A stretch of 64,000 nucleotides of DNA. Origin: an uncultured Acidobacteriota bacterium (GTDB lineage: Bacteria; Acidobacteriota; Thermoanaerobaculia; UBA5066). The position numbers and the translations under genes are program-made. Shown piece by piece: positions 1,777 through 26,826 of the stretch (position 1 is its first letter; every line of letters starts with the position of its first letter). The stretch is taken from the NCBI GenBank assembly GCA_963839295.1, contig CAWIUK010000015.1:43347-107346 (forward strand), given 5' to 3'. Under the pieces are notes generated by a model, which saw only the letters and a program-made list of their open reading frames with translations, had not been told where the DNA came from and did no database searches.

Positions 1777-2231
1777 CGGCTGCGCGGATCCTCGTCGTCG
1801 AGGACGGACGCGAGTACGTGGACGGGTTCGCGCGCCTCGCGGCGGCGAAGGGAGTCGAGGCGGCGTTCGTGCGCGCGGGCAGCCTCGCCGAGGCGCGGGA
1901 GGCGCTCCGGGAGGGAAGGCCCGACGCGGTCTTCCTCGACGTCGTCTTCGACCGGACTCCGGAGCCCGATCTCGCGGGGGACCTCGACGCGCTCGTCGCG
2001 CGCACCGGCGGCGACCGCGAGCGCGCCGTCCGGCACCTCGCGACGAACCAGGGCTTCTACGTCCTCGACGCGCTCGCGGACGAGCTCGCGGGCGTCCGCG
2101 TCGTTCTCGCGTACGACTTCACGGGGGAAGAGAAGAGGCTGGCTTCGCTCCAGGAGCGCTTTCCGATGCTCAGCGGCCTGCCGGATGGAGCCTCTCTGGG
2201 CGCCGCGCTGGACGATCTGCTTCGGAAATAG
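1773..2231 (+). CDS. response-regulator receiver (REC) domain protein
   Basis: GTG start at 1773 overlaps the upstream stop (GTGA). Translation is VTAARILVVEDGREYVDGF...AVFLDVVFD, a REC-like fold. It sits inside the artefactual long frame 174..2231. Stop TAG is at 2229-2231. Confidence 0.5.
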   Translation: MTAARILVVEDGREYVDGFARLAAAKGVEAAFVRAGSLAEAREALREGRPDAVFLDVVFDRTPEPDLAGDLDALVARTGGDRERAVRHLATNQGFYVLDALADELAGVRVVLAYDFTGEEKRLASLQERFPMLSGLPDGASLGAALDDLLRK

Positions 2232-2370
2232 AAGACGAAGAGGAAGAGTTCTTAGAAGGTAATTGCAGCCCGGGCGCCGGCGGCCCCCGCGAGTTGCGGC
2301 GCGGCCGATGCCCTCTTAACCTTCTAAGAGAATCTTCTCTTCGGTTCTTCTCTCGGTCTCTCTTCTTTCG
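2231..2370. repeat. inverted-arm repeat unit 1 (forward arm, GC-rich core, reverse arm), intergenic, filling the whole gap between two convergent stop codons
   Basis: Forward arm GAAGACGAAGAGGAAGAGTTCTTAGAAGGTAA at 2231-2262. A GC-rich palindromic core lies at 2263-2311. Reverse arm CCTCTTAACCTTCTAAGAGAATCTTCTCTTCGG... at 2312-2368. The unit starts at the last base of the TAG stop of the receiver gene and ends 1 bp before the stop of the GAPDH-like gene (2372). Confidence 0.75.
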
Positions 2371-2371
2371 C

Positions 2372-3433
2372 CTAGATTTCCGTGAAGACGAAGCGCTTGA
2401 GGACCTGGATGCGCTGGTTCGCGTGCTCGGGGTCCATGAGCCAGATCGCTCCCGCCACGGAGGAGAGCAGCGAGTTGCCGTCCTGCGGCGTGAAGCAGAA
2501 GCCCACGATCTCGCGCCCCTCGTCCGCGACGGCGAGCGTCGGCGTCGAGATGACGGTCTGGGAGAGGATGCGGCCGTAGTAGCCGTGGTCGCGCCCGAAC
2601 GAGAAGACCTCGTTCGCACTCTTGCGCTCCGTCAGCGCGACGAGAGGGTTCGCCTTCAGCCGCTCGAGGACGCGCTTCTTGTCGGTCTTTTCCTTGAGCT
2701 CGAAGTTGAACCAGACCGAGTGCATGTACTGCGTGTTGAGCTTGATCGCCGAGGAGAAGACCTTCGGCTTGAGGTGAAGCGTCTCGTAGAGGTGGTAGAC
2801 GTCGTGCGCGTGGTGCGTGCCGAACTCGTCGTCGTCGTGCTTGCCGACGGTCGGCGCGGGCGAGTAGTCCTTCGTCTGGGAGATGTCGTTCGAGCGCCGC
2901 ATGCACACGAACTGCGCGCGCTCCATCGTGAGCTTCCCGGCGTCGTCCATCCCGAGCGTCTTGATGAGGATCGCGAGGTTGTGCGTGTTGCACGAGACGA
3001 TCTGGAGGAACTTGTCCTCGCCGGGGACGAGCGTCGCGTCGTTGATCCCGCGCGCGTACATCTTCCCGAACCCGAATTCGGAGCCCTGCGCGAGGAACCC
3101 GACGGGGCCCTTGAGGCTCTTGTAGACCTGTTCCTTGTTGTCGTTGCCGGCCGGCGTGCAGTCGAGGACGACGGTCGCGCGCTCGAGGGCCTCCTGCGCC
3201 GTGTACGACACCTTGTGGCCGAGGGCCTCGAAGTCCGCGACCTTGTCCTCGTCCGCCGCGAGGTGCGCCCCGCGCGTCATGAGGTGGTTCACCTTCGCCC
3301 GTTCCGTCTTCATCGGCGTGCGCTTGTGGAACGTGACCTCGTCGATTCCGAGGTGCTGCTTGAAGTCGGTGAACAGCCCGATCAGCGGTTCGCCGATCGT
3401 GCCGGTGCCGACGATGTGGACGATGTTCTTCAT
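2372..3433 (-). CDS. type II (archaeal-type) glyceraldehyde-3-phosphate dehydrogenase-like NAD(P) oxidoreductase
   Basis: MKNIVHIVGTGTIGEPLIG Rossmann N-terminus, VVLDCTPAGNDNKEQ, and an active-site-like IVSCNTHNL (compare archaeal GAPDH VSCNTTGL). Overall architecture matches type II GAPDH. Confidence 0.55.
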   Translation of the reverse strand: MKNIVHIVGTGTIGEPLIGLFTDFKQHLGIDEVTFHKRTPMKTERAKVNHLMTRGAHLAADEDKVADFEALGHKVSYTAQEALERATVVLDCTPAGNDNKEQVYKSLKGPVGFLAQGSEFGFGKMYARGINDATLVPGEDKFLQIVSCNTHNLAILIKTLGMDDAGKLTMERAQFVCMRRSNDISQTKDYSPAPTVGKHDDDEFGTHHAHDVYHLYETLHLKPKVFSSAIKLNTQYMHSVWFNFELKEKTDKKRVLERLKANPLVALTERKSANEVFSFGRDHGYYGRILSQTVISTPTLAVADEGREIVGFCFTPQDGNSLLSSVAGAIWLMDPEHANQRIQVLKRFVFTEI

Positions 3434-8839: not shown

Positions 8840-9810
8840 ACGACCTCGGAGGCCTCGCCCGCGCGGGGCGGGCCCTCGACCATGACCTTGTTGCGGCCGC
8901 CCTCCTTCGCGGCGTAGAGCGTCGCGTCGGCGCGGGCGACGAGCCCCTCGAGCGTCGCGCGCTCGAACCGGGGCTCGTGGACGGCGATCCCGGCGGAGAT
9001 CGTGACGGGCCTCTCGACGCGCGGGGGCTCCAGGGCCGCGACCGCCTTCCGCAGGCGCTCGAGGGCGCGGACGGCCGCGACCGCGTCCGCCTCGACGAGG
9101 AGCAGGACGAACTCCTCGCCGCCGTAGCGCCCCGCGAGGTCGATCGCGCGGATCGTCCTCGTGATCGCATCCGCGACGGCGCCGAGCGCCGCGTCTCCCG
9201 CGGGATGCCCGTGGGCGTCGTTGAACGCCTTGAAGTGGTCGAGGTCGAGCATCGCGAGCGAGAGGCAGCGGCCCGTCCGCTCGGCGCGGACGAGCTCGGC
9301 GCGCGCCCGCTCCCGGAAGGCGGAACGGTTCAGGAGGCCCGTGAGCGGGTCCGTCGTGGCGCGGGCGAAGAGGCGGCGCTCCTCGTCCACGACGGTCGGC
9401 AGGAGGAGGACCGTGAAGAGGAGAAAGCCGGCGCCGAGCGGCGGCACGACGGTCCTCGCGAGGAGGATCGCGTGCCGCTGCGCGGTTTCCGCGAGGCCAG
9501 CCAGGAGAAGGCAGCTCGCGGCGGCGAAGACGAACGCCCGGGTCCGGCGGGACCCGTGGCGGAGGTCGAAGAGAAGGAGGCAGGCGAAGAGAGCGAGAAG
9601 CGCGGCCGCACCCGTGTCGAGGGGATGGGGCGCCCCCGGGGCGGCGAGCGGAAGGGCGAGGACGAGCGCGGCCGAGAACGCGAGGCCCGCGTAAAGGCCG
9701 AGCGTCCGGCGGCTCCGGGACGCGACGAGGAGCGTGAGCGCGACGAGGCCGAATGCGGCGGCCGTGAGCGCGCAGAGGAGCGCGGCGACCTGCGCGGCCG
9801 TGAGCGTCAT
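8830..9810 (-). CDS. membrane-anchored GGDEF diguanylate cyclase
   Basis: N-terminal TM helices followed by a GGDEF domain (LDLDHFKAFNDAHGHPAGD...RYGGEEFVLLL). It overlaps the aspC-like 3' end by 10 bp (convergent). Confidence 0.75.
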   Translation of the reverse strand: MTLTAAQVAALLCALTAAAFGLVALTLLVASRSRRTLGLYAGLAFSAALVLALPLAAPGAPHPLDTGAAALLALFACLLLFDLRHGSRRTRAFVFAAASCLLLAGLAETAQRHAILLARTVVPPLGAGFLLFTVLLLPTVVDEERRLFARATTDPLTGLLNRSAFRERARAELVRAERTGRCLSLAMLDLDHFKAFNDAHGHPAGDAALGAVADAITRTIRAIDLAGRYGGEEFVLLLVEADAVAAVRALERLRKAVAALEPPRVERPVTISAGIAVHEPRFERATLEGLVARADATLYAAKEGGRNKVMVEGPPRAGEASEVVYR

Positions 9811-9861
9811 GCCGGAGACGATTCTACGTTCGCCGTGCCATCATCGCGCCGGGAGAATCCG

Positions 9862-12265
9862 ATGAAGCGTTTCGTCCTTGCGGCCGCCGCGGCGGCCCTC
9901 GTCCTGGCCCCGTCCTCCTTCGCCGCGACCTCGTACAAGCTGCCGCCGAAAGAGGTCGTCGAGATCCTCGACGCCGCCGTTCCTCCACAGGTGCGCCTCA
10001 GTCCGACGGGGGACGCGGCCCTCCTCGTCGACGTCGAGCCGAACCCGCCGCTTTCGGTCGTGGCCGAGCCGTTCCTCAGGCTCGCGGGCGTCCGGCTCGT
10101 GCCCGCGCGCGGCGCCCTTCAGCACCTGTTCTACGCCTCCGGCCTGTCGGTCCTGTCGCTGCCGGAGGGACGGAGCGCGCGGGTCGCGGTGCCGGCCGGG
10201 TCGCGCCTCGGGATGCCCGTTTTCTCGCCGGACGGCTCGGCGTTCGCGTTCACCCGCGACGCGGACGACCGGATGGAACTCTGGCTCGGAGAGACGAAGA
10301 CCGGCCACGCGGCTCCGGTTCCCGGAGTCCGGCTGAACGACGTGGCGGCCGAAGCGCTGCGGTTCTCGGCCGACTCGCGCACGCTGTGGCTCCTCGCGAT
10401 CCCCGCCGATCGCGGGCCCGCGCCGCCCGAGCCGGCCGTCCCGCAGGGGCCGGTCGTCGAGGAGACGTCCGGGAGGAAGGCCCAGGTCGCCACGTTCGAG
10501 GACCTCCTCAAGAGCTCGCGCGACGAGGACCTGTTCGGGCACTACGCGACCTCGCAGGTCGTCAAGCTCGACGTCGCGTCGAAGCGGACGGCTCCCGTCG
10601 GCGCCCCCGGGTTTTACACGCGGCTCGACCCGTCGCCGGACGGGCGTTACCTCCTCGTCGCCCGGATGCAGCGGCCGTTCTCCTACCGCGTGCCGTTCCA
10701 GGACTTCCCGCACGCGCTCGAGAGTCTGGGACGGCTCGGGGCGGGCCCTCGGCGTCGTGGCGGACCTCCCGCTCGCGGACCAGACGCCGCGGCAGGGCGT
10801 CCCCACGGGCCCGCGCCACGTCGAGTGGCAGCCGATGGAGGAGGCCTCGCTCTTCTGGACCGAGGCCCTCGACGGCGGCGACCCGCTCCGGAAGGTCCCG
10901 TTCCGCGAATCTCTCCGGACGATCCGGGCGCCGTTCGCGGGCGAGGCCCGCGAGGTCCGCCAGCTCGTCCACCGCTTCCAGGACGTCCAGTGGACCGTGA
11001 CGCCCGGGACGGCGATCGTGACGGAGTACGACCGCGCCCGCCGCTGGCGGACGACTTCCGTGATCGACCTCGACAACGCCTCGACGCCGCCGAAGGTCCT
11101 GTTCGACCTCTCGGCGCAGGACGCGTACAAGGACCCGGGTCGCTTCGTCCTCGCGACGTCGCGCCGCGGCCGCCGCACGATCGTGCAGGAAGGCGTCGTC
11201 GCGTTCCTCTCGGGAGAGGGCGCGACGCCCGGAGGCGCGCAGCCGTTCCTCGACGCCGTCGACCTCTCGACCGGCGAGACCCGCCGCCTCTTCCAGTCGC
11301 CGGACGGCGCGCTCGAGCGCTTCGTCGGGTTCCTCGGGGAGAGCCGGATGAAGATCGTGACGCGCCGCGAGACGCCGTCCGACCCCCCGAACCTCTGGCT
11401 CGTCGACCTCGCGCAGCACCAGCGCACGAAGCTCACGGACTTCAAGGACACCGCGCCGAAGTTCGCCGGCGTCAGGAAGGAGATCCTCAAGTACACGCGC
11501 GCCGACGGCGTCGCGCTCTCGGGGACCCTCTACCTGCCCGCGGGCACCGAGGCCGGCACGCGGCTGCCCTGCCTCATCTGGGCGTACCCGCTCGAGTACT
11601 CGGACGCGGGCACGGCCGGGCAGGTCCGGGCCTCGCCGAACGCGTTCACTCGGCCCCAGGGAGCCTCGCCCCTGTTCTTTCTGACGCAGGGCTGGGCCGT
11701 CCTGATGGACGCGACGATGCCCGTCGTCGGCGACCCCGAGAAGATGAACGACACGTACGTGGACCAGATCACGGGGGCCGCGAAGGCGGCGATCGACGCG
11801 CTGGACGCCCGAGGCGTCGTCGACCGCAGGAAGGTCGTCGTGGCCGGCCACAGCTACGGGGCCTTCATGACGGTGAACCTCCTCGCGCACAGCGACCTGT
11901 TCGCCGCCGGCATCGCGCGGAGCGGGGCCTACAACCGGACGCTGACGCCGTTCGGCTTCCAGACCGAGCGCCGGACGTACTGGGAGGCGCCCGAGACGTA
12001 CCTCAAGGTGTCGCCGTTCACGTACGCGGACAGGATCAAGACGCCGCTCCTTCTCATCCACGGCGAGGCCGACAACAACTCCGGCACGTTCCCGATCCAG
12101 TCCGAGCGCCTGTACGCCGCGATCCAGGGGAACGGCGGGACCGCCCGGCTCGTCCTTCTTCCGGGCGAGGCGCACGGCTACCGCGCGCGCGAGAGCGTCC
12201 TCGACGTACTGGCCGAGATGCTGGAGTGGGGGAAGCGCTGGACGGCGGAGAGCCCGGCTCCGTAG
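9862..12265 (+). CDS. S9-family serine peptidase (prolyl oligopeptidase / dipeptidyl peptidase-like), reading frame interrupted by an apparent +1 frameshift near 10720-10760
   Basis: Signal peptide MKRFVLAAAAAALVLAPSSFA and beta-propeller segments in frame 1 up to ...FQDFPHALE. The protein continues in frame 2 (VWDGSGRALGVVADLPLADQ ... GHSYGAF ... HGEADNN catalytic triad region) to the stop at 12265. Confidence 0.7.
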
Positions 12266-16299: not shown

Positions 16300-17195
16300 C
16301 TGAAGGCCGCTCGCGCGCGCGCGACGAGGCCGGGAAGGCCCTGCGGAAAGACGACCAGCGCCACGAAGAGGAGCGTGAACGAGGCGGCGTCCTCGAGGGA
16401 CGTCGGGAGCGTCGTCCACGCGCCGAGGGCGTTCTCGAGGAACGCGAGGACGAGCGCGCCCGCCGCGACGCCGGTGACGCTCTCCATGCCCCCGAGGACG
16501 ATGATGCAGAACGCCTTGAGGAGGAAGCTCCGGCCGAAATCGGGCGTGAACGCGTAGAGCGACGACAGCATCCCGCCGGCGACGCCCGCGAACGCGGTCC
16601 CGAGCCCGAAGGCCGTCGCCGAGATGCGGTCCGCGTCCACGCCCGCGAGGAGGGCCGCGTCGCGGTTCTGCGTGACGGCGCGGATCGCGCGCCCGAGGTA
16701 CGTGGCCCGGAGCACGACGTTCAGGAAGACGAGCGAGAGGACGCTGCCGAGGAAGACGAAGAGCGAGGGGACGCCGACCCTGACGCCGAAGACCGGGAGG
16801 GACTTCATCGTGTACGGCGTCAGGATCGACTGCGTGTCGCCGCCCCAGACCGCGTACGCGAAGTTCTGGAGGACGAGCCAGACGCCGAAGAGGAGGAGGA
16901 GGGACTCCATCGACGGCGTGGCTCCGGAGCGGGGGAGCCGGCTCACGACGAGGCGGTACAGGACGACGCCGAACAGGAAGAAGAGCGGGCCGACGACGAG
17001 GAGCGAGAGAAACGGGTCGAGCGCGAAGCGCGAAAACAGCGCGAACGTCGCGTAGGCGCCCAGCATCATGAGGCCCGCGTGCGCGAGGTTGATGATCCGC
17101 ATGACGCCGTAGATGACTGCGAGGCCGTACGCCATGGTCGCGTACAGCGCCGCGGAGATCACGGTGTTGACGAGGACCCCGGCAACGTCCGTCAC
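16296..17195 (-). CDS. livH: branched-chain amino-acid ABC transporter permease LivH (operon 1)
   Basis: 299-aa polytopic permease with LivH-like blocks (INLAHAGLMMLGAY...). Confidence 0.85.
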   Translation of the reverse strand: MTDVAGVLVNTVISAALYATMAYGLAVIYGVMRIINLAHAGLMMLGAYATFALFSRFALDPFLSLLVVGPLFFLFGVVLYRLVVSRLPRSGATPSMESLLLLFGVWLVLQNFAYAVWGGDTQSILTPYTMKSLPVFGVRVGVPSLFVFLGSVLSLVFLNVVLRATYLGRAIRAVTQNRDAALLAGVDADRISATAFGLGTAFAGVAGGMLSSLYAFTPDFGRSFLLKAFCIIVLGGMESVTGVAAGALVLAFLENALGAWTTLPTSLEDAASFTLLFVALVVFPQGLPGLVARARAAFR

Positions 17196-17239
17196 GGAGG
17201 CGAGAGCGTAGCAGGCCGGGGCGGGAGGCGTAACCTTCC

Positions 17240-18088
17240 GTGCGGCGGAAGATGAAACGCGGACTCCTCGGCGGACTCCTCGGATTCCTCGGGCGCGACG
17301 GCGGGGCGCCGCACGGCGACCCCGTCGCGCTCGCCCGGCCCGACGCCGGGAGCGCCGTCGCCCTGCACCTCGCCGCCGAGCCGCGCAGGCAGGAGCTCTT
17401 CCGGAGGCTCAACCGCGCGCCCGGCGGCACCGCCGGCCTCGTCCGGATGCGCGAGGATCTGCTGCACCTGCTCGGAGGCCACCCGCAGCTGGAAGCCGTC
17501 GACGCCGACTTCGTCCACCTCTTCTCGTCGTGGTTCAACCCGGGCCCTCGACGACGATCCGCTCATCTTCGTGGAGGTCGCCCTCACGGAGGACGTCCCG
17601 GGCGCGATCGCGCCGCTTCTCGCACACGACCTGCGCCCGCTCCCGCTCCGCCGCGCCGCGACCGCCGTCTTCTACTCGACGTCGAACTGCCAGGCCGGCC
17701 TCAGGGGGATCACCTGACGCCCGCGGACCGGCAGGCCCTGCGCGCCCTCGACGCCGACCCCGGACGCGGCCTCGAGTCGGCGCCCCGGCCGCTCCGGAGG
17801 CTCCTCACGGCCGCCGTCGCGCACTACCTCCTCGCCGCGTGCGCCGGCCCGCGCCGGCCGGCGGATCCCGTGGCACGATTCCATTTCGGGAACGGCGCGC
17901 GGCTCGAGGCCGTCCACTGGATGGGCGACCCGTCGCCGCACGGCCTCGAGACCGCCGCGGGCTTCATGGTCAACTACCGGTACGACCTCTCGCGGATCGA
18001 GCGGAACCATCAGCTCTTCGAGAACCGCGGCGAGCGCGTGGCGTCGCACGCCGTCCGGCGCCTCCTGCGCCGGGGGGACGCGGGCTAG
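17240..18088 (+). pseudogene. malonyl-CoA decarboxylase-like gene remnant (N-terminally truncated, two internal frameshifts)
   Basis: MCD-like blocks lie in frame 2 (LVRMREDLLHLL...FVHLFSSWFN) and then in frame 3 (PLIFVEVALTEDVPGAIAPLLAHD...AVFYSTSNCQAGLRGIT followed by a stop). The sequence returns to frame 2 for ...YLLAACAGPRRPADPVARFHFGNGARLEAVHWMGD...MVNYRYDL. Only about 280 codons remain, against about 430 expected. Confidence 0.5.
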
Positions 18089-19131
18089 AGGCTCGCCGCG
18101 TCGATCACGAAGCGATAACGCACGTCGCTCTTCAGCATCCGGTCGTAGGCCTCGTTGATCTTCGCGGCCGGGATGACCTCGACGTCCGCCGTGATCTTTT
18201 TCGTCGCGCAGAAGTCGAGCATCTCCTGCGTCTCGGCGATTCCGCCGATCATCGAACCCGCCAGCTTCTTGTTGCCGAAGATGACGGACATCGCCGAGAG
18301 GCTCGCGGGGACCGGCGGCACACCGACGATCACCATCGCCCCCGACGTCCGGAGCATCCCGAGGTGCGCGTTCAGGTCGTGCGGGACCGAGATCGTGTCG
18401 ACGACGAGGTCGAACCGCCCGGCCAGCTTCTTGAACGTCCCCTTGTCGCTCGTCAGCTCGAACGCGTGCGCGCCGAGGCGCTTCGCGTCGGCCTCCTTCG
18501 AGCGGGAGGTCGAGAGCATCGTGACCTCGGCACCCATGGCGGCGGCGATCTTCACGGCCATGTGCCCGAGGCCGCCGAGGCCGACGACGCCGACACGGTC
18601 GCCGGGCTTGCAGTTCCACTGGCGGAGCGGGGAGTACGTGGTGATCCCGGCGCACAGGAGCGGCGCCGCGGCGGCGAGGTCGAGGCCCGCGGGCACCTTC
18701 AGGGCGAAGCGGTCCTTCACGACGACGCGCTGCGAGTACCCGCCGTAGGTCGGCGTCGTGCGGTCCATCTCGGTCCCGTTGTACGTGAACGCGGCGCCGT
18801 TCAGGCAGAACTGCTCGAGGTGGCGGGCGCAGGGATCGCACGCGAGGCACGAGTCCACGAAGCAGCCCACGCCCGCGAGGTCGCCGGCCTTGAACCTCGT
18901 CACGCGGTCGCCGGTCCGCGACACGCGGCCGACGATCTCGTGGCCCGGGACCATCGGGAAGAGGCCCTTGCCCCATTCGTCCCGCACCTGGTGGACGTCG
19001 GAGTGGCAGACGCCGCAGAAGAGGATGTCGATCTCGACGTCGTGCGGGCCGGGCTCGCGGCGGTCGATCGTGTGGGGGACGAGCGGCGCGCCCGGGGCGG
19101 GCGCCGCGAAGGCGTGAACGTTGGCGGACAT
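18085..19131 (-). CDS. NADP-dependent zinc alcohol dehydrogenase (cinnamyl-alcohol-dehydrogenase-like, YjgB/AdhA-like)
   Basis: Zn ligands GVCHSD...GHEIVG, structural-Zn motif CLACDPC, NAD(P) fold GVVGLGGLGH, 348 aa. Confidence 0.8.
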   Translation of the reverse strand: MSANVHAFAAPAPGAPLVPHTIDRREPGPHDVEIDILFCGVCHSDVHQVRDEWGKGLFPMVPGHEIVGRVSRTGDRVTRFKAGDLAGVGCFVDSCLACDPCARHLEQFCLNGAAFTYNGTEMDRTTPTYGGYSQRVVVKDRFALKVPAGLDLAAAAPLLCAGITTYSPLRQWNCKPGDRVGVVGLGGLGHMAVKIAAAMGAEVTMLSTSRSKEADAKRLGAHAFELTSDKGTFKKLAGRFDLVVDTISVPHDLNAHLGMLRTSGAMVIVGVPPVPASLSAMSVIFGNKKLAGSMIGGIAETQEMLDFCATKKITADVEVIPAAKINEAYDRMLKSDVRYRFVIDAASL

Positions 19132-19197
19132 GGGGAGCTCCTTCTCGAGGCGGCCCGGGGAGGGCGGCCTTCGGCCGAGTCTAAGCCCGGCGCCCCC

Positions 19198-19617
19198 TCA
19201 GGACCCTGCCTTCCTCGGAGGTTTCGACCTGCTGGAACCGTTGAGGCTGACCGCCTGGCGAATGAGAGCCTTGAAGGCGGACGCGTCGACCTTTTCCCCC
19301 TCGTGGATGTCGATCGCGCGGCGCGTGTTCCCGTCGAGACTCGAGTTGAAGAGGCGGGCCGGATCCTTCAGGGACGCGCCCTTGTGGAAGGTGAGCTTGA
19401 CGACGTTCTTGTAGGACTCGCCCGTGCAGAGGATGCCGTCGTGCGACCAGACCGGCGTGCCCATCCACTTCCACTCCTCGAGGACGCCCGGGTCCGCTTC
19501 CTTGATGAGCCTGCGCATCCTGCCGAGGGTCTTCCCGCGCCAGTCCGCGAGTCCTTCGATCTTCTTCGAGATGAGCTCGGATGCCGACTGGCGTTCGCTC
19601 GCGCCCGACGTCTTCAT
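19198..19617 (-). CDS. DUF1801 (YdhG-like) domain protein
   Basis: MKTSGASERQ...EEWKWMGTPVWSHDGILCTGESYKNVVKLTFHKGASLKDP, a YdhG-like fold. The upstream leader resembles a repeat-arm RBS (GGGAAGAGAAAC-ATG). Confidence 0.5.
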   Translation of the reverse strand: MKTSGASERQSASELISKKIEGLADWRGKTLGRMRRLIKEADPGVLEEWKWMGTPVWSHDGILCTGESYKNVVKLTFHKGASLKDPARLFNSSLDGNTRRAIDIHEGEKVDASAFKALIRQAVSLNGSSRSKPPRKAGS

Positions 19618-19657
19618 GTTTCTCTTCCCGCCTTTCCCTTCGCGGCCGACTTCGGGC

Positions 19658-20164
19658 TTACCTCTTCTTTCCCCCCACACCGGGCACGGCTGCGACTTGC
19701 TTCATCCATGCGGCGATCTGGCGCTCGTCGAGGTCGTCCGGGGATTTGAGCTCCACGCCCCGCGTAGACTTGCCCATCGCCGCCGGCGTCACTGGGGGTA
19801 CCGGCTGGAGCGCTGCGCCGTTTACGAACATGAGCTTCACGTGGTCGGCGAATCCACCGCAACAGAAGCACCAGCCATCGCCGACGCCGTAGTACGACAT
19901 GCCCCATTTCACGGAGCGCTGCAGGCCGGGAAGCGTCTTAGCCGCAAGAGCATCAACACTCTCCGCGATCCCGCGCTGCGGTTGCGGCAAGCTGGCGATG
20001 TAGGCGAAGACCGGCTTGTCGCCGACCTCAGCCTTCGCCGGGCTTGCCTTGCCGGTCACCATGGATTCCGGCAGCAGCGTGGCCGCCTTGCCTACTGCCG
20101 GCGTGCGCTTGGCCGGCTTCCGGCCTGCAGGCCTGGAAGTCTTGTCTGTCTTGCGGGCGGGCAT
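19658..20164 (-). CDS. DUF1801 (YdhG-like) domain protein, paralogue
   Basis: AYIASLPQPQRGIAESVDALAAKTLPGLQRSVKWGMSYYGVGDGWCFCCGGFADHVKLMF. Confidence 0.5.
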   Translation of the reverse strand: MPARKTDKTSRPAGRKPAKRTPAVGKAATLLPESMVTGKASPAKAEVGDKPVFAYIASLPQPQRGIAESVDALAAKTLPGLQRSVKWGMSYYGVGDGWCFCCGGFADHVKLMFVNGAALQPVPPVTPAAMGKSTRGVELKSPDDLDERQIAAWMKQVAAVPGVGGKKR

Positions 20165-20189
20165 GGTGGTCTCCTGCAGCTCGGAAGTG

Positions 20190-20280
20190 TGTCCGTCTAA
20201 CGATATCGAGTTCAGCGGCGAGAGGGAAGGAGCGCAGCGACTGACGCCGAGTCCGCGACAATGAGGTGTTAGCCGCCGCT
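20190..20280 (-). repeat. attC-like site 1 (about 85-bp family)
   Basis: GTCTAAC at 20195-20201, internal imperfect palindrome, GTTAGCC at 20268-20274. It abuts the TAG stop of the toxin gene. Confidence 0.55.
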
Positions 20281-20581
20281 AGCGAGTGAGCGCGTTCTGG
20301 ACGGCCGCTGGCCCTCGATGCTGATGCAGACAGGCCAGAACCCGAATGCGATCGGGAAGCACAACGTAGAACAGCGCGTACGGAAAGCCAGGGACGAGCG
20401 CGCGCCGAGCCTCACGGTGAGCCAAGGGACAGGCGAGCGGGTGCTCGGCGATGAGATGCACGACGAGGTCGAGTGAAGCCCTGAACCGACCCCCGAGGCC
20501 GACCTGCCGTGCCTCGTACCAGGCTTGGATTTCGTGAACCTCGCGATCGGCGAGGCCGCGAAAAACGACCGGCAGGCTCAC
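20279..20581 (-). CDS. parE: type II toxin, RelE/ParE family
   Basis: ALVPGFPYALFYVVLPDRIRVLACLHQHRGP C-terminal signature. Overlaps the upstream antitoxin by 4 bp. Confidence 0.65.
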   Translation of the reverse strand: MSLPVVFRGLADREVHEIQAWYEARQVGLGGRFRASLDLVVHLIAEHPLACPLAHREARRALVPGFPYALFYVVLPDRIRVLACLHQHRGPAAVQNALTR

Positions 20582-20799
20582 CGGCTACGTTCGAGAGACG
20601 AGCGAACCTCGGGCCACGGCCGTTCGTCTGAGGGGTTTGAGGCCGCATCGACGAGCCGCCGGTCGATTTCGGCGCGCTGCTCGTCCGTAACCGATACCGA
20701 AGCGGATTCCGCGACGACGCTGTCCCAGATGGCTTGGACGAGCTCAATTCGTTCCGGGACCGGGAGGCGAAGGGCATCGTCGAGTACTGGCGTCGACAT
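20578..20799 (-). CDS. antitoxin (putative addiction-module component, TIGR02574-like)
   Basis: 73 aa: LPVPERIELVQAIWDSV...TDEQRAEIDRRLVD...WPEV. Confidence 0.55.
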   Translation of the reverse strand: MSTPVLDDALRLPVPERIELVQAIWDSVVAESASVSVTDEQRAEIDRRLVDAASNPSDERPWPEVRSSLERSR

Positions 20800-20811
20800 G
20801 CAGTGATTATA

Positions 20812-20942
20812 CGGCGCCTAACGATCAAGACGATCGTCCCCGTCCCGGTGAAGACGGTCGAGCAGCAGACCATCTGTTCGCTCCAGAGACCGCACGCACT
20901 TGATCCCAGGGAGGAGTCCAGATACGCGTTGTTAGACCCCGC
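20812..20942 (-). repeat. attC-like site 2 (longer variant, about 125 bp)
   Basis: GCCTAAC at 20816-20822, GATCAAG/CTTGATC inner inverted repeats, GTTAGAC at 20931-20937. The TAA stop of the upstream cassette gene lies inside the core. Confidence 0.45.
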
Positions 20943-21393
20943 GGTTACTGGTTGGGCCGGGGCCGAGCGTGGCGTTCAGCTCGTGGTCGCTGAGCCAGTT
21001 CTTGGCTACGGACCTCATGCGGTCATCGTGGTACCGGAACCACTGTGCACGAAGAGCCGGAAATGCCGTGAGGACCGACTTGAAGTCCCGAAACGGGTGC
21101 CGACCGTCGAGTGCCGCGAGAAGCCGCCTGCGAGCGAGACCAGGAGGAACGTCGGCCGCGAAGCCCTCCATGATGCGACGCCCCTCCCGTGAAGAAATGG
21201 GTTCGATCGGGAGGTATCGTTCCGGCTCCTGTTCCAGCTCGGCCTGAACCGTGGAGTCGCCGGTGATCGCTGGGTTGATGACAGGAATGACCTCGCCGGT
21301 GCGCAGGTCGAGGACCCATTCGGTTTCAGCCTCGTGACTTTCGAGAGCCACGATCAAGGCATCTGGGTCGACGGTGATACGAGCCGTAACCAT
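20932..21393 (-). CDS. hypothetical cassette-encoded protein
   Basis: The likely start is MVTARITVDPDAL (ATG 21391-21393). About 150 aa. No confident family assignment. Confidence 0.4.
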   Translation of the reverse strand: MVTARITVDPDALIVALESHEAETEWVLDLRTGEVIPVINPAITGDSTVQAELEQEPERYLPIEPISSREGRRIMEGFAADVPPGLARRRLLAALDGRHPFRDFKSVLTAFPALRAQWFRYHDDRMRSVAKNWLSDHELNATLGPGPTSNRGV

Positions 21394-21397
21394 GTTT

Positions 21398-21490
21398 GCG
21401 GGGTCTAACGATATCGAGTTCAGCGGCGAAGAGGAAGGAGCCAAGCGACTGACGATGAGTCCGCTGCAACGAGGGGTTAGGCGGCGCCTA
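21398..21490 (-). repeat. attC-like site 3 (about 85-bp family)
   Basis: GTCTAAC at 21403-21409 through GTTAGGC at 21476-21482. Nearly identical to sites 1 and 4. The TAG stop of the upstream gene overlaps its end. Confidence 0.55.
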
Positions 21491-21967
21491 CTGCTTTCGG
21501 AACAGGAATGCGCCGGTGGTGGTGCCGTAGCTCCAGACGATGATTAGGTCGGTCGCTTTCAGGGCTTCGCGGACGCCACCGAGAGCGTTGTGGAGCATGT
21601 AGTTGCCCTCAAGCGTAGCGTTCGACTGCAATGCCACCTCGCCGACAACTGGGTCATCGACGGGGTAGGAAGGAGGTAACGGCTTGCCGGTGGGGCGTAT
21701 GCCCAGCACGTTGATTGAGTAGGCGTTGCCCCAAGGAAGACCGGATGATGCGAGCGACAGCGGTGCCGAGGAAATGTTTGTGACGGTGAAGTGGAGCGCG
21801 GGCTCACCCGCGACCACGATGCCGGTTGCCTCCACCCGAATTCGAGCGGGCGAGCGAGCTACTGCCGCCCGTTTTGAGTGCTGGAGCCATAGCGCGAAAG
21901 GATCCTCGGCCTGAGCCGCAGCTACGGCTGTGACCGCCAGCGAGACGATTGCGATGAACATGCGCAT
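21488..21967 (-). CDS. secreted hypothetical protein (signal peptide)
   Basis: MRMFIAIVSLAVTAVAAAQA signal peptide. 159 aa. Confidence 0.45.
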   Translation of the reverse strand: MRMFIAIVSLAVTAVAAAQAEDPFALWLQHSKRAAVARSPARIRVEATGIVVAGEPALHFTVTNISSAPLSLASSGLPWGNAYSINVLGIRPTGKPLPPSYPVDDPVVGEVALQSNATLEGNYMLHNALGGVREALKATDLIIVWSYGTTTGAFLFRKQ

Positions 21968-21977
21968 GGCGCTTCTG

Positions 21978-22068
21978 TAGCCGCCTAACGATATCGAGTT
22001 CAGCGGCGAGAAGGAAGGAGCGCAGCGACTGACGCCGAGTCCGCGGCAATGAGGTGTTAGGCGGCTGT
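21978..22068 (-). repeat. attC-like site 4 (about 85-bp family)
   Basis: GCCTAAC at 21983-21989 through GTTAGGC at 22056-22062. Confidence 0.55.
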
Positions 22069-22078
22069 CCGGGAGCAG

Positions 22079-22453
22079 CTACTCAGCGCCTTCGAGATAG
22101 CGAGGGGCCGATTCTTGAATTCCGCGAAGAAGGGACGCACCGAGGACGCGTGAAATGCGGCTCTTGCCAGGCGGCACCACGACAAGAAAGCCCTCGCTCT
22201 CGACTACCCGAGCCATGCTCTGGAACTTCTTTGCCGGGTAGGCGCTGCTTTGAAACACCGTAAGGCGGGATGAGGTGTGCGCGCGCTCTGTGATGCGTGG
22301 ATGCGGATAGGCACCCGACTCAAGAAAGTGGACTTTGCCGGGAAAGGTGCGAGTAAGGACGTCGATGGCTGCGAGCGCATAGGCTTCGGCCGTGCGTGCA
22401 GATACAGGGATGGTGATGTTCTCGTCCGAGACAGAGATGCGCGCGCCCGACAT
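22079..22453 (-). CDS. hypothetical cassette-encoded protein
   Basis: 124-aa ORF. Its ATG lies 12 nt downstream of GTTAGGC, with a GAAGG RBS. Confidence 0.4.
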   Translation of the reverse strand: MSGARISVSDENITIPVSARTAEAYALAAIDVLTRTFPGKVHFLESGAYPHPRITERAHTSSRLTVFQSSAYPAKKFQSMARVVESEGFLVVVPPGKSRISRVLGASLLRGIQESAPRYLEGAE

Positions 22454-22461
22454 GTGCCTTC

Positions 22462-22490
22462 AGCCGCCTAACTAGTATTAGACGGCATCG
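22462..22490 (-). repeat. truncated attC-like or attI-like recombination core
   Basis: GCCGCCTAAC-TAGTA-TTAGACGG. Inverse core and core are only 5 bp apart. An AT-rich region follows at 22490-22580. Confidence 0.3.
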
Positions 22491-22497
22491 GCGGTTC

Positions 22498-22947
22498 TCA
22501 TTTCCATGAGCTTTTCCGCCGAAATCGCGTCCTGTTTTGTACGGGTAGTGATTTTCGTGTACCTACATCTGTAGAGGTTTTCGAGGCGTGCGGGACGAGG
22601 AACGACATGCGCTCGGCGAGGCCGAGCGCGGTGGCCCGGTCGTGGCGCATTTGCCAGCGCATCGCGTTCGGCACCCATCGCCCTCCCGCGGCCTGCACCT
22701 TCGCTCGCAGCTCGGGTTCCCACGACTTTACGTCCACCAGCACCTGCCGGGCCTTGGAGGGCTTCCACGGACCGGCGGCGACGACGAGCTCGACGGTGGT
22801 GAAGCGCGTCGGCGGCGAGTCGCTGTACCGGTAGCGGACCGAGACGAGTCGGTCGCCCCAGTCGCGTGCGAGACGGGCCGTGCCCGGGGCGCCCGGCCGC
22901 AAGGTCGAACCGACGGCGCTGTCGAAGACCTGATCGAATCGGCCCAT
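22498..22947 (-). CDS. hypothetical protein
   Basis: MGRFDQVFDSAVGSTLRP...VLVDVKSWEPELRAKVQAAGGRWVPNAMRWQM. No integrase motifs. The 3' end is AT-rich and uncertain. Confidence 0.25.
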   Translation of the reverse strand: MGRFDQVFDSAVGSTLRPGAPGTARLARDWGDRLVSVRYRYSDSPPTRFTTVELVVAAGPWKPSKARQVLVDVKSWEPELRAKVQAAGGRWVPNAMRWQMRHDRATALGLAERMSFLVPHASKTSTDVGTRKSLPVQNRTRFRRKSSWK

Positions 22948-23021
22948 GCACCTCAGCGTATCGCGATCCCCCGTTCGTGCACCAGGCAGGCGTCCAGCCG
23001 GTTCCCGGCTTCCCGGCGGCC

Positions 23022-23372
23022 CTAGCGATCCGGCGTGAGCGTCTTCACGAACCGCGAGGTCGCGAGGGCCGCGACGAGCGTCGGCGCGACGAGGACGACG
23101 AGGGACACGGGCAGGAACACGTCGGGCGGGAAGGGCCTGGTGACGTAGAGCGCCCACGCGGCCGCCGCTCCGCAGAGGGACGCGACGATCAAGCGGCTGC
23201 CGAAGTACGCGTTCGCGTCGTACCAGACGTCCTCGCTCGCGAGCGTCGCCCGGGTGCGATAGCCGTACACGACGTTCGGGCCGACCTTCCGGAGCGCGAG
23301 CGGGAGAGCGACGAGGATCAGGCCGAGCGAGAGACCGAGGATCGTGAAGAAGCCCTTCTCGAAGACGGTCAT
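23022..23372 (-). CDS. SdpI/YhfL-family small membrane protein
   Basis: MTVFEKGFFTILGLSLGLILVALPLALRKVGPNVVYGYRTRATLASEDVWYDANAYFG. The start overlaps the upstream stop (ATGA). Confidence 0.5.
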   Translation of the reverse strand: MTVFEKGFFTILGLSLGLILVALPLALRKVGPNVVYGYRTRATLASEDVWYDANAYFGSRLIVASLCGAAAAWALYVTRPFPPDVFLPVSLVVLVAPTLVAALATSRFVKTLTPDR

Positions 23373-23908
23373 GCGCTGCTTCCGGTCTTCTTCGGCGGCC
23401 CGGGCGGCTGGGGCGGCTGGTCGGGGCGCCACCAGGGGTCGGGCGCCGCCGGCTCGGCCTGGTCGGGGCCGACGTTTTCGGCCGACACCGTCGCGAAGAT
23501 GAAGTTCTCGGACGGCACGGGCCGGCCCGCGAGCCTGCGGAGCATCGCGAGCTGGCCGGCGTGCGTCATCGCGTCCGAGAGCGGACCCTGGAGGAACTGC
23601 TCGTCGGAGATGCGGGCCTCGAGGCCGGAGTCCGCGAAGTCGTCGCGCAGCGCCGCGAGCGTCGCGTGGAAGCGCGCGACCTCCTCGCCGAACGTCGCGA
23701 GGCGGGGCGGGGCGAAGTCGCCGCCGTGGAGCATCGTCCGCGCGTAGCCGACGACGCCCGTCATGTGCCAGACGAGCTCGTGGGGCGTCCGCACGTTCGG
23801 GCCCGCCCGGAACTCGCCGAAGCCAGCCGGCGCGCCGCGGAGCGCTTTCTGCGTGCGGTAGGCGAGGGCGGCGAGGAAGTGGCCCAGGAGGCGCCGGGAC
23901 TCGCTCAT
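23369..23908 (-). CDS. DinB/YfiT-like (DinB_2) metal-dependent hydrolase-fold protein
   Basis: MSESRRLLGHFLAALAYRTQKAL...HELVWHMTG...MTHAGQLAMLRR. Confidence 0.55.
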   Translation of the reverse strand: MSESRRLLGHFLAALAYRTQKALRGAPAGFGEFRAGPNVRTPHELVWHMTGVVGYARTMLHGGDFAPPRLATFGEEVARFHATLAALRDDFADSGLEARISDEQFLQGPLSDAMTHAGQLAMLRRLAGRPVPSENFIFATVSAENVGPDQAEPAAPDPWWRPDQPPQPPGPPKKTGSSA

Positions 23909-23915
23909 CGGCCCG

Positions 23916-24260
23916 TCACGCCATGAGCCGGCGGATGTGCTTCGAAATCGCCCGCAGCTGGGCGGCGTCGGCCCCACCGAGGACCGAGCGGACGATCGGC
24001 GACATGACGCGCATCGCCCCCCCGACGCCGAGGCTGGCGGTCTGGCGCGCGACGAATCCCAGCTTCGCGTCGCGGACCGCCTTGAGGAAGTAGAAGTCCA
24101 TCCCGGACTCGGTCAGGGCGAGGACCAGCGAGCACAGGTCCTCCGTGTGGCGCACGGGGTCGGGATCGCCGTCGATCTTCGCGAGGAGCTTGAGGGTCCG
24201 CGTCCGGAGCGCGGCCGGGAGCGTGAACCGGAGGGACGTCGGCGGGGCGGGGGCGGCCAT
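23916..24260 (-). CDS. hypothetical protein
   Basis: 114-aa ORF with normal composition. No family recognised. Confidence 0.3.
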   Translation of the reverse strand: MAAPAPPTSLRFTLPAALRTRTLKLLAKIDGDPDPVRHTEDLCSLVLALTESGMDFYFLKAVRDAKLGFVARQTASLGVGGAMRVMSPIVRSVLGGADAAQLRAISKHIRRLMA

Positions 24261-24300
24261 GGAGGGAAGTCTAGACCCCGGCCGCCGCCGACGACGGGCC

Positions 24301-25512
24301 TCAGCTCCTCGGGATCGGCGCGACGGGCGGTCCCGTGCGGTCTTCCTTCGGCCACACGAGGTCGAGCTTGTCGTTCGGCTTGTTCTGGGTGACGACGAAC
24401 GGCAGGACGGCCTGCCCGGTCTTGCTGAACTTGTACACGCCGCCCGGGAGGATCGAGTCCCTGAGCTCGAGCGACGCGAGCGCGGCGCGGATCGCCTCGG
24501 GCTTGAGCGAGCCCGCCTTGTGGATCGCCGCGAAGATCGCGCGGACGGTCTCGTACGCGCAGGCGTGGTACCACTGCGGCGTCGTCCCCGTGGCGGCCTT
24601 GTACTTCTGGCTGAAGGCCTTCACCTGCGGGTAGGGGAGCAGGTCCGACCACCAGCCGCTCGCGAAGATGTAGTCGGTCGCGGCGCCGAGCCCCTTGCGG
24701 GCCGCCTCGTCCGAGCCGCGCGCGCCGTAGGTGACCATCTGGTGGCTGAGGCCCATCTGCGTGTAGAGGCGCTGCATCGAGATGTAGTCCTCGAGGTGCG
24801 CGTCGGCCATGAAGAGGTCGGCCTTCGCGTTCTGGACCCGCGAGAGGAGCGGCTTGAAGTCGGCCGCGTACATCTCGAAGCTCTCGTCGAGCGCGACCGA
24901 GAATTCCTTCGGGTGGGCTCTGACGTAGTCGTGGATGCCCTTCTGGAAATCCTTCCCGTGCTCGGTGTTCTCCCAGACGATCGCGATCTTCAGGGGCGGC
25001 TTGAGCTTTCCCTCCCGGACGAGGTCGTCGAGAAACTCCATCTGCGTCGTCGCGAGGTTCTCGACGGGGGAGAGCGTCCCGAAGACCCACTTGCTGCGCC
25101 CGTAGATGCTCGTCGCGCCCGCGCCGCCCGCCACGTACGGGATGCCGTAGCGGTCCGGGACGACGCTCTGGGCCTGGACGAGCTGCGAGCCGTAGCCGCC
25201 GACGACCGCGTGGACCTTCTGCTGGGCCATGAGCTGCTCGACGAGCTGGGCGCTCTTGCTCGCCTCGGACGTGTCGTCGAGGAGGCGGAGGTCGACCTTC
25301 ATCTTCTTCCCGCCCACGTCGAGGCCGCCCGCGTCGTTCACTTCCTTGACGGCGAACTCCGTGGCCTGCTTGTAGGCGCCGCCGATCTTCGACTCCTTGC
25401 CCGTGACGGGCAGAACGGCGCCGAGACGGATCTCGTCGTCCGACCGGACGGGGGACGCGGCGAGGAGCGCGGCGGCGAGGACGGCGAGCCGGGAGCGGCG
25501 GAATGGCGACAT
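24301..25512 (-). CDS. ABC transporter periplasmic substrate-binding protein (Leu/Ile/Val-binding, PBP1 family), orphan
   Basis: Signal peptide MSPFRRSRLAVLAAALLAASPV. Type-1 PBP blocks IRLGAVLPVTGKES...VHAVVGGYGS. Confidence 0.7.
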   Translation of the reverse strand: MSPFRRSRLAVLAAALLAASPVRSDDEIRLGAVLPVTGKESKIGGAYKQATEFAVKEVNDAGGLDVGGKKMKVDLRLLDDTSEASKSAQLVEQLMAQQKVHAVVGGYGSQLVQAQSVVPDRYGIPYVAGGAGATSIYGRSKWVFGTLSPVENLATTQMEFLDDLVREGKLKPPLKIAIVWENTEHGKDFQKGIHDYVRAHPKEFSVALDESFEMYAADFKPLLSRVQNAKADLFMADAHLEDYISMQRLYTQMGLSHQMVTYGARGSDEAARKGLGAATDYIFASGWWSDLLPYPQVKAFSQKYKAATGTTPQWYHACAYETVRAIFAAIHKAGSLKPEAIRAALASLELRDSILPGGVYKFSKTGQAVLPFVVTQNKPNDKLDLVWPKEDRTGPPVAPIPRS

Positions 25513-25590
25513 CTGCTCTTCTCCTCCTGGACGGTTTCGAGAGGATAGTCCAGCGCGACGGCGTGTCAATCCGGCGCCCGGCGGCCACGT

Positions 25591-26826
25591 TTATGCGCAG
25601 AGAAAGACGACGGCGAGGAGTCCGGCCGCGAACGACGCCACGCACGAGGCCACGACGCCCGGCCAGCCCCAGGCCTGCCACGCGTAGCCCGGGAGGACGG
25701 AGCCGAAGGTGGCGCCGAGGTAATAGAACGTGGCGTACAGGGCGCCCGCGCCGCCCTTGGCCTCGCGCGCGGTCGCGTTGACGAAGGCCGGGGCCGTCCC
25801 CTGCACGAGGAACATCCCTACGCACAGAACCACGAGGGACGCGAGGATGGACGGGACCGAACGCGCGAGCGTCCCGGCGGTGGCGACCGCGGCCACGAGG
25901 AAGCCGGCGGCCATGATCGGCCGCCGCCCGAACCGCTCCGACGCGCGGCCCGCGGCCCAGGAGGTCGCGATGCCCGCGACGTAGACGAGGTAGACGCCGG
26001 AGACCCTCGCCGTCGAGAGCCCGAAGGGCGGCGCCGTGAGGTAGTACGGCAGGTACGTGAAGACCGCGATGAACCCGAAGAAGACGGTGAATCCGATCGC
26101 GAGGCCGCCGACGAGGCGCCGGTCGCGGACGTGTCCCGCCATCTCGCGGAACGCGTGCGTCAGCCGGCGACGCCGGCCCGGCGGGGTCGCCGGGAGGTAG
26201 AGGGCCATGCCGAGCGAGCCGAGGAACGTCAGGACGCCGAACACGAGGAAGGGCGTCCGCCAGTCGAAGCGGCTCGCGATCCAGCCGCTCACGACGCGGC
26301 CCGTGAGGCCGCCGAGGACGGACGCCGCGACGTAGCTGCCCACGGCGGGCCCCAGCGCGGCGCCCGCGTACTCGTCCCCGAGGTACGCGACCGCGACGGC
26401 CGCGACGCCGGGCATGAGGAGCCCCTGCAGGGCCCGGAGGGCGACGAGCGCGGGGAACGTCGGCGCGACGGCGCAGAGGAGCGTCGGGACCGCGAGGGCC
26501 GCGCAGCTCCCGACCATCACGGGCTTGCGGCCGTACGCGTCCGCGAGGGGGCCCCAGGCGTTCGAGACGAGGGCGATCATGAGGACGACGACGGACACCG
26601 TGAGCGCCGCCGTCGGCGCGCTCACCCCGAATTCGCGCGAGAGGAGCGGCAGGATCGGCTGCGTGACGTAGAGGTCCGAGAAGACCGCGACGGTCGCGAA
26701 GAAGAGGGCGAGGAGCGCCGCCTGGGAGCCGGGCCGCGCCGCCGTCACGTCGCGGTCCCGGGGGGCGAGCCGCCGTCGCTGCGCATTCGACGAAAATCTT
26801 CTCACGTACACTTCCACCGCCCGCAA
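25591..26826 (-). CDS. MFS transporter
   Basis: 12-TM-like hydrophobic profile (LALFFATVAVFSDLYVTQPILPLL...). The true start may lie downstream of the track start. Confidence 0.7.
   Translation of the reverse strand: MRAVEVYVRRFSSNAQRRRLAPRDRDVTAARPGSQAALLALFFATVAVFSDLYVTQPILPLLSREFGVSAPTAALTVSVVVLMIALVSNAWGPLADAYGRKPVMVGSCAALAVPTLLCAVAPTFPALVALRALQGLLMPGVAAVAVAYLGDEYAGAALGPAVGSYVAASVLGGLTGRVVSGWIASRFDWRTPFLVFGVLTFLGSLGMALYLPATPPGRRRRLTHAFREMAGHVRDRRLVGGLAIGFTVFFGFIAVFTYLPYYLTAPPFGLSTARVSGVYLVYVAGIATSWAAGRASERFGRRPIMAAGFLVAAVATAGTLARSVPSILASLVVLCVGMFLVQGTAPAFVNATAREAKGGAGALYATFYYLGATFGSVLPGYAWQAWGWPGVVASCVASFAAGLLAVVFLCA

Follow-up and report, generated by a model that had tools for sequence, protein, structure and literature searches.

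What becomes of an integron when its integrase gene no longer stands beside it, and can its ancestry still be read? This question is raised by a 64-kb stretch of contig CAWIUK010000015.1 (hereafter the window), from the chromosome of an uncultured soil Thermoanaerobaculia bacterium (Acidobacteriota), in which an earlier note made from the sequence alone had seen integron-type recombination sites (attC) and no integrase gene (intI) nearby. We conclude, with a probability of about 0.9, that positions 19187-23021 of the window are an integron module without an integrase, that is, an attC cluster that has no integron-integrase (CALIN), flanked by genes for an alcohol dehydrogenase and an SdpI-family protein. 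On the minus strand, the module consists of a gene that we call orfX, an attI site (short repeats followed by the core GTCTAAT-ACTA-G/TTAGGC, with the slash at the recombination point), four cassettes, and two DUF1801 genes that have no attC (Table 1). The CALIN reading of the earlier note is borne out: the same attC family stands next to true integron integrases (IntI) in related genomes, cassettes are shared between arrays, and the window has no intI. Given that the attI core, its repeats, and orfX have been retained while intI is gone, the origin of the CALIN can be read, and it has arisen here from a complete platform that lost intI or became separated from it. Cassette arrays that have no integrase are to be expected, and the value of this one lies in its details. 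In particular, an intI-less layout that persists across related genomes with differing cassettes bears on the origin of CALINs and on whether they remain active.

The repeats of the window are genuine attC sites. Three direct copies of about 88 nt (20188-20275, 21396-21483, and 21976-22063) are 80-93% identical in pairwise comparison, each encloses an 80-nt attC unit, and together with a fourth, damaged site they lie within 1.9 kb. An exact 25-mer common to the repeats occurs three times in the window, where zero occurrences are expected from 100 shuffles, and a family-specific covariance model scores the three copies at 88-110 bits, the runner-up in the 64 kb being a chance-level match of 15 bits. 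The near-identity described in the earlier note is thus real, as are the inverse core and core sequences that it proposed: on the plus strand, the repeats start with GTCTAAC or GCCTAAC and end with GTTAGCC or GTTAGGC. Read on the cassette strand, the three sites run from GGCTAAC, GCCTAAC, and GCCTAAC to GTTAGAC, GTTAGAC, and GTTAGGC, respectively, as R'' and R' cores should. Two contextual features also agree with the earlier description, namely that each repeat starts 0-17 nt past the stop codon of a small minus-strand open reading frame (ORF) and that the GC content is lower than in the flanks (57-66% over 19200-22800 versus 70-76%). Every plausible gene between 19198 and 22947 is on the minus strand.

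The connection of this attC family to integrases is found in other genomes. A 20-mer from the repeat, scanned against 185,579 species genomes, returned 80 loci, nearly all of them in metagenome-assembled genomes (MAGs) of Thermoanaerobaculia/Acidobacteriota, and an nhmmer profile built from the three window copies found 352 further copies in 79 loci. These copies are co-oriented within every locus and reach 15 per 8 kb at a median spacing of 560 bp. In 225 of the 259 intervals between repeats the longest ORF is on the cassette strand, and mean coverage of the interval is 86%. Copies from different MAGs are up to 99% identical, so that the homogeneity remarked on earlier describes a family that is uniform both within and between genomes. 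In several loci, proteins encoded next to the array are 54-58% identical to IntI1 over their full length, IntI-specific insertion included. The result was independently confirmed with TIGR02249 (“integron integrase”), which the protein of locus L051 matches at 464 bits against a cutoff of 265.

These observations make it hardly credible that the repeats are generic intergenic elements, such as repetitive extragenic palindromic (REP)-like sequences or terminators, that happen to resemble attC. Single copies do have weak hairpin potential and one terminator-like match falls inside an attC, but all three copies in the 64 kb are in the array, the dense arrays of other genomes lie next to IntI, and the homology of cassette units breaks off at the cores. 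The REP-like dispersal that such an explanation calls for is absent, as zero copies of the family lie outside the array within the window; the earlier note had named a spread of the repeats beyond gene 3' ends as grounds for giving up its reading. An Rfam scan (E up to 1) of 17000-26000 gave a chance snoRNA match as its sole result, and Rfam has no attC family. As a side observation, exact matches to the 20-mer also occur in contigs from bins assigned to Betaproteobacteria, Actinomycetota, Myxococcales, Ignavibacteriota, Anaeromyxobacteraceae, and Burkholderiaceae (L009, L016, L021, L044, L052, L065, L077, and L079), which are either mis-binned contigs or instances of cross-phylum cassette transfer. 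In L065, an IntI fragment lies beside the site in the canonical orientation.

A structural model of the site was tested on an alignment of 143 distinct attC copies. The family consensus is GCCTAAC ... GTTAGGC, with the AAC/GTT positions paired in 135-143 of the 143 sequences. The model comprises an R box of GCCTAAC/GTTAGGC (7 + 3 bp), an unpaired 3/4-nt spacer, a 3-bp helix, and TT:AA, and further inward a single bulged base, a 6-bp stem (CAGCGG:CCGCTG), and a 34-nt variable loop. This R-box/L-stem arrangement is 87.5% paired, compared to 30-44% when the 3' partners are slid, and two L-stem pairs show compensatory changes (11 sequences with UA to CG, 4 with GC to CG), within the limited variation that a homogeneous family offers to a covariation test. 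With the ORF strand as the top one, the single-base bulge falls on the R''-L'' arm, which agrees with the orientation of the cassettes. We rejected the inner stem preferred by folding energy (TCAG..CTGA), as the alignment holds zero compensatory changes for it.

We next consider the head of the array, where the window carries what intI-bearing integrons of this family carry. In L001, L011, L036, L051, L066, and L069, intI, orfX, and the first cassette are co-oriented and orfX directly follows intI. A near-invariant GCCGTCTAATACTAGTTAGGC lies downstream of orfX both in the window and in these intI-orfX loci, and similarity between loci ends right after GTTAGGC. The 21-mer of the attI core is found after orfX in 10 loci and in L081, L082, L083, and L086 with at most 1-3 changes (13-14 places counted); in the whole window it has a single match, of which the attC model sees the R''/R' pair only (12.7 bits). 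The short repeats upstream of the core include a pair of 13-nt direct repeats with 26-nt spacing in the window and in L081, whereas L030 has three 23-nt copies, and all related loci have 2-3 lineage-specific repeats at this attI-proximal place (about 5 in L108). Synonymous divergence from L081 is lower over the attI-repeat stretch than in the orfX core (pS of 0.17 versus 0.42), and the repeats are candidate protein-binding sites. In attI1, direct repeats are combined with a simple site, and the window is alike in having short repeats upstream of a simple-site core. Judged by sequence, 22466-22486 and the repeats upstream of it are an intact attI, the same as in intI-bearing loci. The earlier note had suspected a truncated site at 22462-22490 to be a decayed attI with its cassette promoter (Pc); an attI it is, but with a conserved core, neither truncated nor decayed.

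The integrase itself is missing. Between the start of orfX and the stop of the SdpI gene, where intI would be expected, there are only 75 nt. Using IntI1 and four native Thermoanaerobaculia IntI proteins as tblastn queries, we found no integron integrase, remnant, or Xer-like match in the 64-kb window, and the earlier note had seen no tyrosine recombinase close to the array; with the native queries at E up to 1, one spurious 28-aa match was the only result. It is very improbable that a divergent or pseudogene intI near the array was overlooked. To be sure, tblastn is less sensitive than profile searches, and pseudogenes are found near 5% of CALINs (Cury et al., PMC4889954), but the queries came from the same clade, the expected place is a short gap before a conserved SdpI gene, and five related loci share the same intI-less layout. 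Elsewhere in the clade, damaged intI genes were observed in L011 (3049-3840, internal deletion) and L053 (3358-4102, frameshift), both numbered in array orientation, and in L087 (2768-3734, split gene call), each of them still upstream of orfX or the array, and intI decay in this clade seems to be recurrent.

As Cury et al. 2016 (PMC4889954) define the term, the element is a CALIN, having at least two attC sites on one strand and no intI within 4 kb, and it is not a complete integron, as no intI is adjacent. It resembles the CALINs described there also in the small size of its array (4 sites) and in cassettes that are unrelated to resistance genes. Unlike most CALINs, which have no trace of a platform, it keeps an intact attI and the platform-linked orfX.

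Comparison with related loci shows how the module sits in the chromosome. The flanks of the window are 80-90% identical to Thermoanaerobaculia MAG contigs, and the segment 19187-23021 is extra relative to L025, where only 49 nt, containing GAGTCTAGCGGG, separate the start of the alcohol-dehydrogenase gene from the stop of the SdpI-family gene. In L025, L004, L083, and L086, an intI-less module of orfX, attI, and array is instead located between a periplasmic-binding-protein gene (window 24301-25569) and gene Y, so that the module has two alternative places with respect to the Y-X-SdpI block, depending on the relative. The order of the window, SdpI followed by orfX, is also found on a metagenomic contig with a 97%-identical orfX, where at least nine small ORFs come next, most of them differing in size. 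Across close relatives that share the intI-less layout the sets of cassettes differ, and the intI-less module is thus conserved in the lineage at two neighboring positions with variable cassette content.

The junctions of the module bear on another possible origin, in which IntI built the array at a secondary, non-canonical chromosomal site (attG) and there never was a platform. This is a known route to CALINs (PMC4889954; Loot et al. 2024 as cited in PMC13323075), the distal junction (GTCTAAG) and the empty site of L025 (GTCTAGC) are core-like, and relatives offer two alternative module positions close to each other. We nevertheless find this origin improbable, as the array is headed by an attI core, repeats, and orfX in the layout of intI-bearing platforms, all of which an attG insertion would lack. 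A degenerate TTAGAC that had been placed at about 19170 does exist, although at 19179-19185, right where the segment missing from L025 has its distal edge. In the junction regions (window 19179-19186, 23018-23024, and 24268-24277; L025:3630-3720; L004:3380-3500; L083:5940-6020), GTCTAG is present in both “empty” sites and TAG, a 3-nt repeat, flanks the window insert on both sides. These motifs are suggestive with regard to the alternative position of the module, but may be due to chance.

The cassettes themselves carry a record of movement. The toxin-antitoxin (TA) cassette at 20201-20821 recurs in the arrays of L026, L012, and L002 at 84-88% identity and with different neighbors, and the homology extends from the GTTAG of the preceding site to the GTTAG of its own site, so that both ends fall at cores. 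Such sharing, broken off at GTTAG cores, marks a cassette as having been moved by recombination at G/TT. Within this cassette, an antitoxin-family gene (20578-20799; PF09720 Unstab_antitox, E 7e-13) overlaps by 4 nt a partner ORF of 100 aa (20279-20581), which by its position alone would be the toxin. A TATAAT at 20806-20811 (minus strand), a perfect -10-like motif directly after the R' core and 6 nt before the antitoxin ATG (20799), suggests a cassette-borne promoter and possibly a leaderless mRNA; the copies of L026 and L012 keep the motif, and that of L002 has TATAAC. The protein of cassette 2 has a 69%-identical counterpart in another array, L015. Pfam and NCBIfam searches (E up to 1) gave zero matches for the ORFs of cassettes 1 and 2, the putative toxin ORF, and genes X and Y.

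One of the four sites has a different history. The longer repeat variant reported at 20812-20942 does have both cores (R'' GTCTAAC at 20931-20937, with the stop codon of the UPF0158 ORF inside it, and R' GTTAGGC at 20816-20822), but it is not a long attC. What is left of the site is R'' with 6 nt, and ATC with R'; in between lies debris of an insertion sequence (IS), in which 42 nt of one IS end (20883-20924) are fused to a 57-nt internal fragment of the transposase gene (20826-20882). In L066, L068, L012, L014, and L047, the two halves of the remnant lie about 1.05 kb apart inside an element of about 1.49 kb. The full element encodes an IS110-family transposase (NF033542, 287 bits; PF01548 + PF02371) and has the subterminal inverted repeats GGACTCCTCC / GGAGGAGTCC. 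Twelve other copies from nine loci share one exact insertion point in attC, preceded by CTAAC plus 6 nt, as well as one orientation, with copies at L066:4686-6170 and 1708-3190 and also in L068, L012, L014, L047, L036, L046, and L075, and the window remnant occupies this same position. With IS debris inside its attC, the UPF0158 cassette therefore has a dead site. Two other readings of the long repeat, an attC with a long loop and a group IIC-attC intron, were rejected because the interior matches the IS110-family element. The element is often present twice per array, and the approximately 340 nt of non-coding DNA downstream of its transposase gene (tnp) are where IS1111 elements encode seekRNA.

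The full copies in relatives fit the IS1111-attC group (ISPa21, ISKpn4, and ISPst6; Tetu & Holmes 2008 and Post & Hall 2009, both cited in PMC11187229). They share with it a transposase of the DEDD/IS110 family, inverted repeats in subterminal position, a long stretch of non-coding DNA after tnp, and insertion that is specific in both site and orientation, at one end of attC. Unlike the described members, the window holds a 99-nt remnant only, and the element of the relatives is a new member, with the Thermoanaerobaculia attC family as its target. An attC-targeting element of the IS110/IS1111 type is hereby documented in Acidobacteriota, and it shows the erosion of attC sites and the fusion of cassettes by such elements.

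On our reading of the locus, IntI would excise cassettes by attC x attC recombination, acting on the folded bottom strand (the plus strand of the window), and insert them at the G/TT of attI, and this IntI would have to come in trans, either from another part of the genome or from the community. Transcription of the cassettes would come by read-through from orfX and the co-oriented genes upstream, the TA cassette would be expressed from its own TATAAT, and this cassette may help to stabilize the array.

Several observations weigh against our reading of the locus. One of the four attC sites is destroyed, and cassettes 3 and 4 are probably fused and now movable only together. Two of the three remaining window sites have an A-to-C mismatch in the L stem. 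In canonical attC sites, strand choice is directed by an extrahelical T and an extrahelical G on the bottom-strand '' arm. The bottom strand of the present family has instead one extrahelical C on the '' arm and a 2-nt bulge on the other arm, and single-sequence DNA folds of both strands are no better than those of shuffles (z of -1.7 to +1.2). In the bottom-strand folding proposed in the earlier note as a check, an extrahelical base is on the expected arm without the T/G pattern, and single copies fold at the level of shuffles. Lastly, a scan of 19000-23200 with the sigma-70 consensus, which may not fit Acidobacteriota, returned no promoter match, so that the Pc suspected beside the attI is likewise not among its results.

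Is the array then a frozen relic, in which no functional IntI acts and the cassettes are decaying chromosomal genes? We take this possibility seriously, although the odds seem to us to be against it. It would account for the absence of intI from the 64 kb, the attC lost to IS debris, the L-stem mismatches in two sites, and DUF1801 genes that have no attC at all, and intI pseudogenes are common in relatives (the L011 internal deletion and the L053 frameshift). However, close relatives of the same intI-less layout differ in their cassette sets, the attI core is conserved, and orfX is under purifying selection, with ratios of nonsynonymous to synonymous divergence (dN/dS) of 0.09-0.47 in intI-less contexts. 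Moreover, a related MAG (MFD05942.bin.1.16) has both an intI-bearing integron (L001) and, at the orthologous locus, an intI-less array (L008) of the same attC family. This coexistence, the varied cassettes, and the selection on orfX favor, but do not prove, exchange through IntI in trans.

The gene orfX deserves attention in its own right. It has no match in Pfam or NCBIfam, and all 62 of its 62 homologs in a large protein database are unannotated. A weak DUF5710 match, in the C-terminal half of the family, is present in 18 of 47 members (best E 2.8e-5), and the top BFVD matches of orfX are DUF5710 proteins at E of about 0.1. An AlphaFold2 model is confident for residues 1-119 and disordered for the tail that overlies the attI repeats, and nothing similar was found in the PDB. 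Family members are about 115-150 aa long. A metagenome scan returned at least 584 relatives, of which 80 loci were retrieved as a sample (L088-L167). An IntI match is present in 37 of these 80, and among the 63 loci with enough upstream DNA, 22 have a co-oriented IntI that ends just upstream of orfX. Several others have a divergent IntI just upstream, which is the canonical orientation; one of these, L108, continues from orfX into about five copies of a 17-nt repeat, TTTA/GTTAGGC, a cassette ORF, and a 58-nt attC-like site. We rejected the idea that orfX is a first cassette: its position is constant in many loci, an attC never follows it, and similarity runs through orfX to the attI core. In a literature search that was not exhaustive, we found no description of a gene like orfX between intI and attI. 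As a tentative and rather doubtful proposal, orfX could be an unrecognized component of the integron platform in an extensive clade of integrons from soil and freshwater, maybe one that binds the attI repeats, and intI-less modules could be maintained “satellite” docking platforms served in trans rather than dead relics. A role of orfX as an attI-binding accessory factor or as a regulator of cassette insertion or expression is speculation. Nonetheless, an unannotated gene with at least 584 metagenomic relatives that lies between intI and attI in many integrons is a testable candidate for an accessory factor.

Known integrons offer further points of comparison. In the inverted-integrase layout of Treponema-type integrons (PMC4889954, PMC13323075), as in the intact relatives of the window, intI is upstream of and co-oriented with the cassettes; unlike that layout, the relatives have a conserved orfX between intI and attI, and the window has no intI. 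The attC family of the window resembles that of sedentary chromosomal integrons, such as those of Vibrio cholerae (with the V. cholerae repeats, VCRs) and Xanthomonas (PMC12444791), in having uniform attC sites and cassettes mostly of no known function. The window shares with these integrons a toxin-antitoxin cassette and a chromosomal location, and relatives show the recurrent intI decay that is also known from Xanthomonas integrons with decayed intI (PMC12444791). It differs from them in its Acidobacteriota host and in its 4 sites, compared to a definition of this class by more than 19 sites or by occurrence in every genome of the species (PMC4889954), and it differs from VCRs in attC bulges that do not reproduce the extrahelical T and G. 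The arrays of relatives reach at least 15 sites per 8 kb versus the 4 of the window. Acidobacteria attC sites are already in use as a taxon-specific model (PMC8352920).

Table 1. Features of the cassette module and its neighborhood, in window coordinates.
Feature	Position	Strand	Description
Three-gene block, gene Y	23916-24260		
Three-gene block, gene X	23369-23977		
Three-gene block, SdpI	23022-23432		
orfX	22498..22947	-	149 aa; between intI and attI in relatives; tail (aa 120-149) overlaps attI repeats
attI-proximal short repeats	22495-22518, 22535-22558, 22560-22583	-	Shared CGAAAA-N2-CTAC-type units, each with a small imperfect palindrome
attI core (simple site)	22466..22486	-	GCC GTCTAAT ACTA G/TTAGGC (GTCTAATACTA / GTTAGGC); first cassette from TT, 22471
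Cassette 1	21989..22471	-	ORF 22079-22453, 124 aa, no family match; attC 21983-22062, 109.7 bits
Cassette 2	21409..21988	-	ORF 21488-21967, 159 aa, N-terminal signal-peptide-like segment; attC 21403-21482, 87.8 bits
Cassette 3	20822..21408	-	UPF0158-family ORF 20932-21393 (PF03682, E 7e-18); attC 20816-20937, destroyed
IS110/IS1111-type IS remnant	20826..20924	-	99 nt in two pieces; replaces L boxes and loop of cassette-3 attC
Cassette 4	20201..20821	-	Toxin-antitoxin-type pair; attC 20195-20274, 93.4 bits
Two DUF1801 genes	19658-20164 and 19198-19617	-	PF08818, E 5e-22 and 2e-14; distal to last attC
Distal junction of module	19179..19186	.	GTCTAAG on plus strand; proximal junction 23021/23022

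At the far end of the module, the two genes that the earlier note regarded as possible distal cassettes are indeed of the DUF1801 family, whereas their cassette status is unproven, as the family-specific covariance model found no attC relic beside them. Both lie inside the segment that is absent from L025, their GC content of about 65% is cassette-like, and a DUF1801a homolog (85% identical in nucleotide sequence) is likewise array-distal in L004. They may be fossil cassettes or array-distal cargo. In L081 and L082, whose orfX is 91% identical to that of the window, the array is short, with two attC matches. It is followed on the opposite strand by genes at 9102-11914 (DUF3631, HTH_17, and a 276-aa gene) that look like a small integrative element abutting the array.

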